Assembly: GCF_057098645.1 (NCBI RefSeq)
Contig: NZ_CM169472.1
DNA: 64,000 bases
Direction: 5' to 3' (one strand)
The notes beneath the pieces were generated by a model. The model searched no databases. It saw nothing but the letters and a program-made list of their open reading frames with translations, and was not told the origin of the DNA. The translations under genes were made by a program, and so were the position numbers. Shown here one piece after another: positions 52,557-58,140 of this stretch. Position 1 is the first letter of the stretch. Every line of letters begins with the position of its first letter.

Positions 52557-52728
52557 TAAAAAAAGCCAGCGACTGACCTGAAAAAGAAGACGCTGGCTAA
52601 AAGGCCTTATATGTTTGTAGAGACTTATTTTTCACAGACAGCAATGATGCCTGTCAATATATTATCAATATGCGGATTGTTTCAGTTACAGATGCCTTAT
52701 TAAGGAAAAAAACAGCCAGCTGTAGTGG

Positions 52729-53379
52729 TCAAGTAATATTGGCCACGGTTTTACAGTAAAAATGGTATCTGTTCTCTGACTCTTCCGGCGTCAGCCCACC
52801 GTTATAATGGTGAGGTCTGACGCTGTTGTAGTAGTTCAATATGTAATCATTAATTTGCTGCCGGGCCTCGTCCTTGCCTGCGTAACCATTCGTTGGCACC
52901 CATTCTGTTTTCAGACTGCGGAAGAAGCGTTCCATGGGGCTGTTATCCCAGCAGTTTCCCCGCCGACTGACGCTTTGATTTATTCTGCAACGCCAGAGAA
53001 GTTGTTGATATTTAAGGCCTGTATACTGGCTTCCCTGGTCGCTATGGAACACGACATCCCGGGGTTGGCCACGCGTCTCATAGGCCATCCGCAGGGCACT
53101 GCTTATCAGTGCGGTATCGGCATGCGCTGACAGACTCCAGCCGATAACCCTGCGGGCAAAAAGATCCATAACAACCGCCAGATAGCACCAGCGATTTCCT
53201 GCCCAGAGATACGTAATATCTCCACACCATACCCGGTCTGGCTCCGGTACTGCGAACTGACGCTCAAGCAGATTCGGCAGGCTGGTATGCTCCTGACGGG
53301 CATTTTTATACTGATGTTTTCCGGGCTGACAACTGCTCAGGTTCAGATATTTCATCAGACGTCCGGCACGGTAACGGCT
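52729..53379 (-). pseudogene. IS911-like transposase OrfB, separated from its orfA by the IS629 insertion
   Basis: DDE-type region ([10 protein letters not shown]...[12 protein letters not shown]); the ORF upstream of 53380 reads through the IS629 terminus. Confidence 0.7.
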
Positions 53380-53433
53380 TGAACCGCCCCGGGAATCCTG
53401 GAGACTAAACTTCCTGAGAAAGAGGTAAACAGG

Positions 53434-53760
53434 ATGACTAAAAATACTCGTTTTTCCCCTGAAGTCCGTCAACGGGCAGTCCGTATGGTTCTGGAAAGTC
53501 AGGGCGAATATGACTCACAATGGGCGACAATTTGTTCCATTGCTCCAAAGATTGGCTGTACGCCGGAGACTCTGCGTGTCTGGGTTCGCCAGCATGAGCG
53601 GGATACCGGGGGCGGTGATGGAGGGCTCACCACCGCTGAACGTCAGCGTCTGAAAGAGCTGGAGCGTGAAAATCGTGAACTGCGCCGCAGTAACGATATC
53701 CTTCGCCAGGCTTCCGCTTATTTTGCGAAGGCGGAGTTCGACCGCCTCTGGAAAAAATGA
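53434..53760 (+). CDS. IS629-like transposase OrfA (copy 2)
   Basis: 108 aa, differs from copy 1 at 2 residues. Confidence 0.85.
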
Positions 53761-54197
53761 TGCCACTGCTGGATAAGCTGCGTGAGCAGTACGGGGTCGG
53801 ACCGCTATGCAGCGAACTGCATATTGCCCCGTCAACGTATTACCACTGTCAGCAACAGCGACATCATCCGGATAAACGCAGTGCCCGTGCGCAGCGCGAT
53901 GACTGGCTGAAGAAAGAGATACAGCGCGTATACGATGAAAATCACAAGGTATACGGTGTGCGTAAAGTCTGGCGTCAGTTGTTACGGGAAGGTATCAGAG
54001 TGGCCAGATGCACTGTGGCACGTCTCATGGCGGTTATGGGACTTGCCGGTGTTCTCCGGGGTAAAAAGGTCCGTACGACCATCAGCCGGAAAGCCGTTGC
54101 CGCAGGCGACCGCGTAAACCGTCAGTTCGTGGCAGAACGACCTGACCAGCTGTGGGTGGCTGATTTTACTTACGTCAGCACATGGCAGGGCTTCGTG
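53757..54197 (+). pseudogene. IS629-like OrfB, N-terminal part (copy 2), interrupted by IS21-family insertion
   Basis: Matches copy-1 OrfB up to ...[14 protein letters not shown], then reads into the foreign element. Confidence 0.8.
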
Positions 54198-54294
54198 CGT
54201 ATTCCGCTCTATTCGATCACGGATTGGCATCGAAGTCCGATCAGCGATTCGCATCCATTCGATCAACCGGGAACTTAACTTTTTCTACCGCTTT

Positions 54295-55066: not shown

Positions 55067-56602
55067 TCAGTGGTAGTAGCCCGGACCACGCAGGTTTTCA
55101 TGCTCTGAAGCATATGCCGGATGTTGTTCGCCCTGGCGGGATAATGGAAGCTCCAGGTTCTCCCGATGGTGACGCAGCAGATTGTCGATAAAGCGTCTGT
55201 CAGGGGCGTTATAGTGCAGGGCAACGTAACAGGCCTTTTCCAGCCGTTCCGGGCCGTATTTTTTCTGAAGTGCCAGCAGCCCCAGAACTGCACGATAAGC
55301 CAGTTCCGGATGGGGTTTTGCCTTCAGCATGGATTCAACCACCCGGCCTGTGGACGGGCCCGTACGTTTTCCCTGCTCGATCAGGCGTTCCGGTGTCCAT
55401 GTCCCGTGCTGCCGGTGGCGCTCTGGCATGTGAAGCGGATTGGTTGTGTGTTTATATTCATGTGTGCTGCGCGGATGTTGCGCCACACACTGCCCCTTGT
55501 GCCAGAGCTGTACCACCGACTGCCCCGCCTTCAGTGACAGACGCTGACCGACCAGTTCGTGTGGAACGGAGTACCAGTGACGGGCATATTCAACGTGGTA
55601 GTCAGGGCCAACCTTCACAGCTTTGTATTCCGTGTATTCATAAGGTGCCAGAGGCAGCGGAGAGAGTGCTGGCGCATCCAGTATGCGGAAGCGTTCTGCA
55701 CGGGTTTGATTGCCGTACCCCTTCATTGGCCGGTTATTCATGTCTGTCAGTAACTCCCTAAGGCGCGCATTCAGCGCCCTGAGCGTGTGGAAGGTTTCAT
55801 TACGGATGCGGGCAAGAAGCCATCGTTCAACGATGAGGACGCCGTTTTCTGCTTTTGGTTTATCTTTAGGTTTGCGTGGTCGGGCCGGGATGATAACCGT
55901 GCCATAGTGCTCAGCCAGTGCCTGATAACTGTCGTTGATGACAGGCTCATATCGATCGGCCTTTTTCACTGCGCTTCTGAGGTTATCGGGGATGAGCAGC
56001 TTCGGTACGCCGCCCAGGAAGGTCAGGCAACGGCTGTGGGCATTTAACCATGACATCATGTCCTGACCTTCGCACGCTTCAACGTAGGTATAGTTGGACG
56101 CCCCCATTACGGCCACGAAGATTGCCACGCGGCGTATCTCACCGGTGTCCGGATTAATAACAGGAACCGTAGGACCACAGAAGTCGATAAAAAGCTTTTC
56201 GCCGGCACGATGCTCCTGGCGCATGGAGAGACGTCGCGTTTTTTTCCACTCCCGGTAGCAACGGCAGAAGTGCGAGTATCCCATCGCTTTGTTACCCGCC
56301 TGTGCCTTGTATTCCATCCACAACAGTTGCCGCGTCACACCTGGTTTTCTCATTTCCGTATCGAAGTACAACATGTCAGGCATTACAAGCTCTGATGCAA
56401 AGGTGTCTTTGGGCGGAAAAATGAGTTTCTCCAGCGTGTCATGGGATATATCAGCAGGTAATGGCCATGACAGAGAAGAGGCTTTGAAGCGGGCAAGAAC
56501 CTCAAAAACGGTTGAGGCGCTGATGTGTAACGTCAGTCCGATACAACGGTTAGTCAGCTTCTTGTCGAACTTGAGCTGAAGGATCTTAAAACAGGTTTCC
56601 AT
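55067..56602 (-). CDS. istA: IstA-like IS21-family transposase; start uncertain
   Basis: Long ORF with N-terminal HTH and DDE-type core, ends 16 nt upstream of istB. Confidence 0.7.
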   Translation of the reverse strand: METCFKILQLKFDKKLTNRCIGLTLHISASTVFEVLARFKASSLSWPLPADISHDTLEKLIFPPKDTFASELVMPDMLYFDTEMRKPGVTRQLLWMEYKAQAGNKAMGYSHFCRCYREWKKTRRLSMRQEHRAGEKLFIDFCGPTVPVINPDTGEIRRVAIFVAVMGASNYTYVEACEGQDMMSWLNAHSRCLTFLGGVPKLLIPDNLRSAVKKADRYEPVINDSYQALAEHYGTVIIPARPRKPKDKPKAENGVLIVERWLLARIRNETFHTLRALNARLRELLTDMNNRPMKGYGNQTRAERFRILDAPALSPLPLAPYEYTEYKAVKVGPDYHVEYARHWYSVPHELVGQRLSLKAGQSVVQLWHKGQCVAQHPRSTHEYKHTTNPLHMPERHRQHGTWTPERLIEQGKRTGPSTGRVVESMLKAKPHPELAYRAVLGLLALQKKYGPERLEKACYVALHYNAPDRRFIDNLLRHHRENLELPLSRQGEQHPAYASEHENLRGPGYYH

Positions 56603-56835
56603 AGTGCTCCTGGATTTTCTCTTTCTGGACATTGACGTCTCCACTGGTTTAAACACGGCAATGGAGACTGTGGTGAAAAGAGTTAATTCCCGGAGTGACT
56701 GGCAGGATGCCAATCAATGATCGGAAGCATGCCAAATCGTGATCGATTGTGATGCCAAACTGTGATCGGAGATGGATGCCAAATCATGATCGATTCGAAT
56801 GCCAAACTGCGATCGATTCAGATGCCATTTTGCAC

Positions 56836-57291
56836 TTCGTCTATGTGGCGTTCATCATTGATGTGTTTGCCGGATACATTGTGGGGTGGCGGGTCTCATC
56901 GTCCATGGAGACGACATTCGTGCTGGATGCACTGGAGCAGGCGTTATGGGCCCGTCGACCGTCCGGCACGGTCCATCACAGTGATAAAGGTTCTCAGTAT
57001 GTATCGCTGGCCTACACACAGCGGCTTAAGGAAGCCGGATTACTGGCATCAACAGGAAGTACAGGCGACTCGTATGACAACGCGATGGCGGAGAGCATCA
57101 ATGGTCTTTACAAAGCGGAGGTAATACACCGTAAGAGCTGGAAAAACCGTGCAGAAGTGGAACTGGCCACACTCACGTGGGTGGACTGGTATAACAATCG
57201 ACGATTGCTGGAAAGGCTGGGCCATACTCCTCCGGCAGAAGCAGAAAAAGCTTATTATGCTTCCATCGGAAACGATGATCTGGCAGCCTGA
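56836..57291 (+). pseudogene. IS629-like OrfB, C-terminal part (copy 2)
   Basis: Resumes at ...[18 protein letters not shown] and matches copy 1 to the stop. Confidence 0.8.
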
Positions 57292-57551
57292 GTTCACAGA
57301 TAAAACACTCTCCAGGAAACCCGGGGCGGTTCAGCTCATCGGGACGCCGTTTTGAGTCAGCATTTCAGCCAGAGTGCGCGCGCCCGCAGAGCCCCGACTT
57401 TGGTTCCACGCCCGGCGTATTTCGCTGCACAACCTGACTCGTGCCGGATTAACCGTATCGCGTCGTTTTCGCCAGTACCGGTAACTGCTGCGGTGTATTT
57501 CCAGAGCAGAACACAGGCTGACAACCGTGTGGCTGTCACTTAGTCTGGCGG

Positions 57552-57899
57552 CTATCGTGAACCGTTCAGCGAGTCGGACATTAAGAGCGCGGTAGCCTTT
57601 TTTAATATCGTATTTTGTTCCTCCAGACGGCGAACTTGCTTTTCCAGCTCGCGGATACGTTGCTGGTCTGGAGTAATGGGTGTGGCAGAGGGCGTAATAC
57701 CCTGGCGCTCTCGCCTGAGCTGGCGTACCCAGCTCTCAAGCGTGGTTGAACCGACATTCATCGCTTCACTGGCCTGTCGATATGAGTAGCCCTTATCAAC
57801 AATCAGCTGTGCACATTCCAGCCTGAACTCAGGGGTGAAGGTTCGTTTGGTTTTCTTGTTCATTAAGTCACCTGTTTTGTGTTGTGGTGAGAATATCAC
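57552..57899 (-). CDS. IS911-like transposase OrfA (HTH); likely true start MNKKTKRTF at 57863
   Basis: C-terminus ...[16 protein letters not shown] typical of the IS911 group. Confidence 0.7.
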
Positions 57900-58140
57900 C
57901 TTTCATCAGGTGGCCAAATTTAGTGTGCCACTACAAGCACTGACTTTCGGTGGAGAGGTGCTGGCTCAAAAGGATAGATGTACTTCACATGTTGCTTCTA
58001 TATGGCAGTACATTTTCTGACAGACAGTGACGGATGTTGTCAAGATATTGTGTCATTTATAACCTGAATCAGGGGAGGCCGGAATGTTATCTGGCATTTT
58101 TAGCAGAGCCTGAATGCCATAATCACGGCTCCCGGCGTTG

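Follow-up and report, generated by a model that had tools for sequence, protein, structure and literature searches.

Three nested insertion sequences in a prophage

We analysed a 64,000-nucleotide stretch of Escherichia coli DNA (contig NZ_CM169472.1 of NCBI RefSeq assembly GCF_057098645.1), here called the window, which contains a lambda-like prophage at the ybhC-ybhB (lambda-att) site. Between an esterase gene and the lysis genes of this prophage lies a pile of three insertion sequences (IS). An ISEc31-like element of the IS3 family carries IS629 within its orfB, and IS629 in turn carries ISSso4, an IS21-family element, within its own orfB. This three-level nesting is real and correct to the base. 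The parts of the pile are listed below.

52721-57935, minus strand: outer element, whole, defined by its ends, duplication and healed identity
52721-53379, minus strand: outer element, orfB-distal part, with one terminal inverted repeat and the 3' two-thirds of orfB (52729-53379)
57337-57935, minus strand: outer element, orfA-proximal part, with the other inverted repeat, orfA (57552-57863), the A6G slippery site and the 5' part of orfB
52718-52720, no strand: AGC target duplication of the outer element, left copy, read from the raw sequence
57936-57938, no strand: AGC target duplication of the outer element, right copy, read from the raw sequence
53380-57333, plus strand: IS629, whole, defined by its inverted repeats, GCT duplication and healed identity
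53380-54195, plus strand: IS629, left part, with an inverted repeat, orfA (53434-53760), the frameshift pseudoknot (53715-53831) and the 5' part of orfB
56840-57333, plus strand: IS629, right part, with the right inverted repeat and the 3' part of orfB, which includes the entire catalytic core
53377-53379, no strand: GCT duplication made by IS629 in the outer orfB, left copy, read from the raw sequence
57334-57336, no strand: GCT duplication made by IS629 in the outer orfB, right copy, read from the raw sequence
54196-56834, minus strand: ISSso4, 2639 bp, intact, with istA (55067-56602), istB (54295-55050) and TG...CA ends
54191-54195, no strand: CTTCG duplication made by ISSso4, left copy, read from the raw sequence
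56835-56839, no strand: CTTCG duplication made by ISSso4, right copy, read from the raw sequence

The interrupted elements were healed in silico by deleting each insert and one of the two copies of its target duplication and rejoining the flanks. Families were called with NCBIfam profiles (NF033516, cut-off 160 bits; NF033546, cut-off 160 bits; NF038214, cut-off 200 bits), and RNA families were scored by Rfam. Element names were taken from exact-sequence look-ups at NCBI and from 90% protein clusters. Searches for junctions, empty sites and elements covered 5,426 complete E. coli genomes.

The outer element has the ends TGTAGTGG...GGCCAC, which match at 20 of their first 26 positions. Its imperfect terminal inverted repeats of the form TG...CA and its 3-bp duplication (AGC; family range 3-4 bp) are those of the IS3 family. 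Healing gave an element of 1258 bp (52721-53379 joined to 57337-57935) with an uninterrupted orfB frame; intact copies in many E. coli genomes match this element from end to end at 100% identity. The healed OrfB scored 302.8 bits against NF033516, and OrfA fitted the N-terminal part of the same model. The sequence AAAAAAG at position 333 of the healed element, within the overlap of orfA and orfB, is a candidate -1 frameshift site, and the predicted OrfAB fusion of 392 amino acids is present as an exact sequence in public records. The 90% protein cluster of the transposase contains a member labelled ISEc31, and the element matched an ISEc31-annotated copy in O55:H7 strain CB9615 at 92.7% DNA identity. 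Under the naming practice of ISfinder, an element takes the name of a reference at about 95% protein or 90% DNA identity. By sequence comparison, the element appears to be best labelled ISEc31-like, ISEc31 being the nearest name at NCBI.

The 5' part of the outer orfA (57745-57867, minus strand) was also matched by the Rfam family isrC over its full length, with 150.4 bits (gathering score 39). The family is labelled 'Hfq binding RNA' and comes from Salmonella; given this full-length match, isrC appears to model a section of an IS3-family transposase gene.

The middle element has inverted repeats of 25 nt that are 92% complementary in a repeat search. Its healed form measured 1310 bp, with the orfB frame open again, and was 100% identical over these 1310 bp to copies in O145:H28 genomes, including strain RM12581. 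OrfB scored 315.7 bits against the IS3-family NCBIfam model, and Rfam placed an ALIL frameshift pseudoknot at 53715-53831 (120.2 bits). The 90% protein cluster of the transposase bears IS629 names, and the exact look-up also gave IS629. This IS is present in 19-40 places per O145:H28 genome. The nested copy was only 97.5% identical to the other IS629 of the window (41576-42885) and fully identical to the RM12581 copies; it derives from the main IS629 variant of the lineage and not from its neighbour.

At its istA end (56705-56815), the inner element carries five GATCN5-6TTGGCA repeats with a spacing of about 23 bp; the opposite end has one or more inverted copies. These multiple terminal repeats, the TG...CA ends and the 5-bp duplication (family range 4-8 bp) are typical of the IS21 family. 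IstA scored 284.7 bits against NF033546, and IstB scored 257.8 bits against NF038214. For the exact sequence of IstB, NCBI gives the name 'ISSso4 family', and free-standing copies of the whole element, found on chromosomes and plasmids of E. coli, showed 100.0% identity to it. It is intact and presumably still active. A literature search for ISSso4 and ISEc31 returned mobile-element lists and nothing on this locus.

ISSso4 was also seen in IS629-like elements elsewhere. One such insertion (L001, 7231/9871) lies 30 bp from the site in the window, at the equivalent of position 54165, and another (L003, 3467/6106) lies near the equivalent of position 56990; both have the same relative orientation as in the window.

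A preliminary description of the window, made from the letters alone, had proposed the three-level nesting with the same outer boundaries, and the open reading frames (ORFs), the repeats and the raw sequence agreed with it. The 3-bp repeats AGC and GCT that it reported were found, and we add the 5-bp CTTCG of the inner element, which it did not contain. Its istA/istB element of roughly 2.64 kb is ISSso4.

Authenticity and order of the insertions

The probability that all three duplications arose by chance is about 1 in 4 million (1/64 x 1/64 x 1/1024). Far stronger than this argument is the healing itself, which restored open orfB frames and elements 100% identical to intact ones, and which also argues against misassembly. 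Each of the three elements occurs in multiple copies in E. coli genomes, and the exact arrangement was found in no other complete genome among the 5,426, as might be expected if repeated IS copies had been misjoined. Such an artefact is nevertheless most improbable: every level has a perfect duplication of family-typical length (3, 3 and 5 bp) and heals to an exact intact element, whereas misjoins between repeats fall within homologous sequence and do not produce nested insertions flanked by duplications; moreover, the outer junctions were seen independently in 22 genomes. The preliminary description had raised a single known composite transposon as one alternative that could overturn it. A composite transposon consists of two copies of one IS around cargo, moving as a unit. 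The block is compact, which is all that recommends reading it as such a transposon or as another functional unit with cargo; it contains only transposition genes, no pair of like IS brackets any cargo, and it does not recur, with no record covering at least 80% of the region in the genomes searched. This alternative can be virtually dismissed.

Comparison with other genomes revealed earlier states of the locus. The reconstructed empty site, matched at 99.9% identity, occurred in 686 genomes, O26 and O103 strains among them, where the esterase, holin and lysozyme genes follow one another; in O103:H2 strain CEC12044, the uninterrupted site has a single AGC. A junction query found the outer element alone, at the same base and with the same AGC, in 22 genomes. 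All of these are apparently of the O145 lineage, some being O145:H28 (assigned by name or by 100.0% backbone identity), and no carrier of this junction outside O145 was found (22/22). In the O145:H28 strains RM12581 and RM9872, the outer element is intact and has the same AGC and a single internal GCT. The junction between the outer element and IS629 occurred in 0 of the 5,426 genomes, nine apparent matches being two-piece matches to other arrangements, and the junction between IS629 and ISSso4 likewise occurred in none. An exact look-up of proteins specific to the junctions or to the frameshift, made in public records in search of other carriers, returned none. By the distribution of the junctions, the outer insertion is old and lineage-wide, and both inner insertions are recent and confined to the source strain. 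The empty and outer-only states bear out the sequential accumulation proposed earlier.

The same description had suspected an enterohaemorrhagic-type lineage, and positions 1-25000 of the window were indeed 100.0% identical to O145:H28 strains. A Shigella origin of the window, considered because IS629, IS911 and ISSso4 were originally reported from Shigella, was ruled out by this backbone match.

The pile is thus very probably the product of three ordinary IS that transposed one after another into the same place in a defective lambda-like prophage of the O145:H28 enterohaemorrhagic lineage. The ISEc31-like element would have entered the 448-bp spacer between the esterase and holin genes in an O145:H28 ancestor, duplicating AGC. 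The IS629 variant resident in the lineage would then have inserted into the outer orfB, duplicating GCT, and ISSso4 would have inserted into the orfB of IS629, duplicating CTTCG. Both the ISEc31-like element and IS629 have lost their own transposase and kept both ends.

The last two steps could also have been one, if IS629 already held ISSso4 on entry and the 3.95-kb IS629::ISSso4 unit was mobilised whole by transposase from another IS629 copy. We regard this as distinctly unlikely. The nested IS629 does retain both inverted repeats, and other IS629 copies are available in the window and in the O145:H28 genomes; however, no second copy of the IS629/ISSso4 junction was found in the 5,426 genomes, the look-alikes are independent insertions, one 30 bp away (L001) and one at another site (L003), and IS3-family transposases act preferentially in cis, which is established for IS911. 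Twelve genomes that covered at least 80% of IS629::ISSso4 were considered as sharers of the junction and rejected, as most held the two elements as mere neighbours or had IS1203 inside ISSso4.

Some points weigh against successive insertion. No genome searched had the intermediate state, with the outer element and IS629 and without ISSso4, so the order of the last two insertions is read from geometry alone; this absence also suits the movement of a preformed unit. Nesting and misjoining were both judged from the assembled sequence and from genome comparison. Further copies of IS629::ISSso4 elsewhere in the source genome, which was covered by the window only, are possible.

Decay of the prophage and the lysis genes

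The genes that flank the pile and the second IS629 of the window are as follows.

50707-52556, plus strand: esterase gene of the sialate O-acetylesterase type (DUF1737/SASA/DUF6645), upstream flank, frameshifted
58222-59359, plus strand: lysis genes, downstream flank, encoding holin (58222-58428), lysozyme (58428-58925) and an Rz-type lysis protein (58910-59359), frames open
41576-42885, minus strand: second IS629, of intact length, with no target duplication and the flanks AAG and ACC

In the esterase gene, a single base is missing from a G run near 51305 (about 51300-51310), which reads G5 in place of the G6 of O103:H2; the remainder of the gene is identical. The G5 allele splits the esterase of 616 amino acids into ORFs of 209 and 445 amino acids. 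Nine other contigs, none with the pile, encode an identical 209-amino-acid fragment within a number of different prophages, suggesting that the frameshift allele is widespread. The frameshift site lies 3 bp from the position of ISEc20 in RM9872 and RM12581. In the annotation of the homologous O103:H2 prophage, the lysis genes encode a class II holin, an RrrD lysozyme and a lysis protein.

Compared with the O103:H2 version, the window is without cro, cII and the first 560 bp or so of O (about 1.1 kb in all), and the second IS629 lies at this deletion. The missing DNA and the lack of a target duplication give it the appearance of an IS-adjacent deletion by which replication and early control were lost. 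Together with the esterase frameshift, it supports the earlier description of the prophage as decaying. An lpxR-type lipid A deacylase gene is inserted on the opposite strand between the nin region and Q (47112-48071, minus strand) and is also present in the O103:H2 and O145:H28 versions.

It had been suggested that the pile probably uncouples lysis from late transcription. The pile would add 5.2 kb, mostly antisense, between the late promoter region and S-R-Rz. A candidate late promoter pR' lies at 49220-49248 (TTGCAA-17-TATACT), and a terminator-like hairpin follows directly after Q at 49282-49303. Further hairpins of this kind are found in the uninterrupted late region at 50594-50612 and 58140-58166, the latter being strong, with an 11-bp stem and a T run, and placed 56 bp ahead of the start codon of the holin gene. 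Their presence in the uninterrupted operon suggests that late expression would need Q antitermination in any case; in lambda, polymerase modified by Q transcribes through terminators over long distances. A terminator scan of the plus strand within the pile found only weak hairpins with stems of 5-6 bp, which are evidence neither for nor against polarity. By analogy with lambda, in which the cro-cII interval carries nutR, the loss of this interval is the more likely block and would impair Q expression after induction. Since the prophage appears to have been crippled already upstream, the pile probably matters little for lysis, and uncoupling of lysis from late transcription as its main effect is rather unlikely.

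Comparison with known elements and other IS piles

The elements and the phenomenon are already known, and the arrangement, though real, is an ordinary one. The outer insertion is a marker of the O145:H28 lineage, all 22 junction carriers being O145, and the two inner insertions, absent from the 5,426 complete genomes, could be used as an epidemiological marker on a fine scale. The locus illustrates the wear of enterohaemorrhagic E. coli prophages by IS. It has little importance beyond strain typing and raises no new question for transposition or phage biology.

ISSso4 has entered the orfB of IS629 at least three independent times (window, L001 and L003), always in the same relative orientation, and ISEc31-like elements repeatedly gather IS629, IS30 and ISSso4 in unrelated strains. 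Such IS might favour one another as targets, in which case stacking would not be passive and a targeting rule would make the piles predictable. We consider this unlikely; the cases are few and consistent with neutral accumulation in harmless targets. Repeated nesting of IS629 in the ISEc31-like element, suggested by nine matches, was dropped as a claim when the three that were inspected showed adjacency, truncation and nesting via IS30. The same ISEc31-like type is split by IS30, itself split by IS629, in the pile of UTAK-1 (L023, 2000-5700), and carries IS30 and ISSso4 in that of EA2 (L011, 3010-7733). Both piles differ from that of the window in locus, partners and insertion points.

The label 'IS911-like' given to the outer element in the preliminary description holds for family and architecture and fails for identity. 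Like IS911, the element has the IS3-family layout, a length of about 1.25 kb and an A6G slippery site near the end of orfA, and the C-terminal motif of its OrfA seems to resemble that of IS911. It is nevertheless a different element with ISEc31 as the nearer name, as judged from the cluster label and the DNA match. The nested IS629 shares with this abundant IS of enterohaemorrhagic E. coli the healed length of 1310 bp, orfA and orfB, the ALIL pseudoknot and the 3-bp duplication; it differs in that ISSso4 interrupts it shortly before the presumed catalytic core. The break lies about 7 codons before what is presumed to be the first catalytic aspartate of OrfB, assigned by analogy with other IS3-family transposases, and the nested IS629 thus cannot make its own transposase. 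The inner ISSso4 shows nothing notable apart from its location inside IS629.

The closest relative of the locus as a whole is the prophage of RM9872 and RM12581. It has the same backbone (100.0% over 25 kb), is the same prophage and contains the same outer element with the same AGC. It differs in that the outer element is intact, ISEc20 lies in the esterase gene, IS629 lies in the lysozyme gene, and the loss in the early region is linked to IS629. In RM12581, the segment from holin to ren is inverted between two IS629 copies (L009, 8420-23332), one of which splits the lysozyme gene, whereas in RM9872 it is un-inverted.

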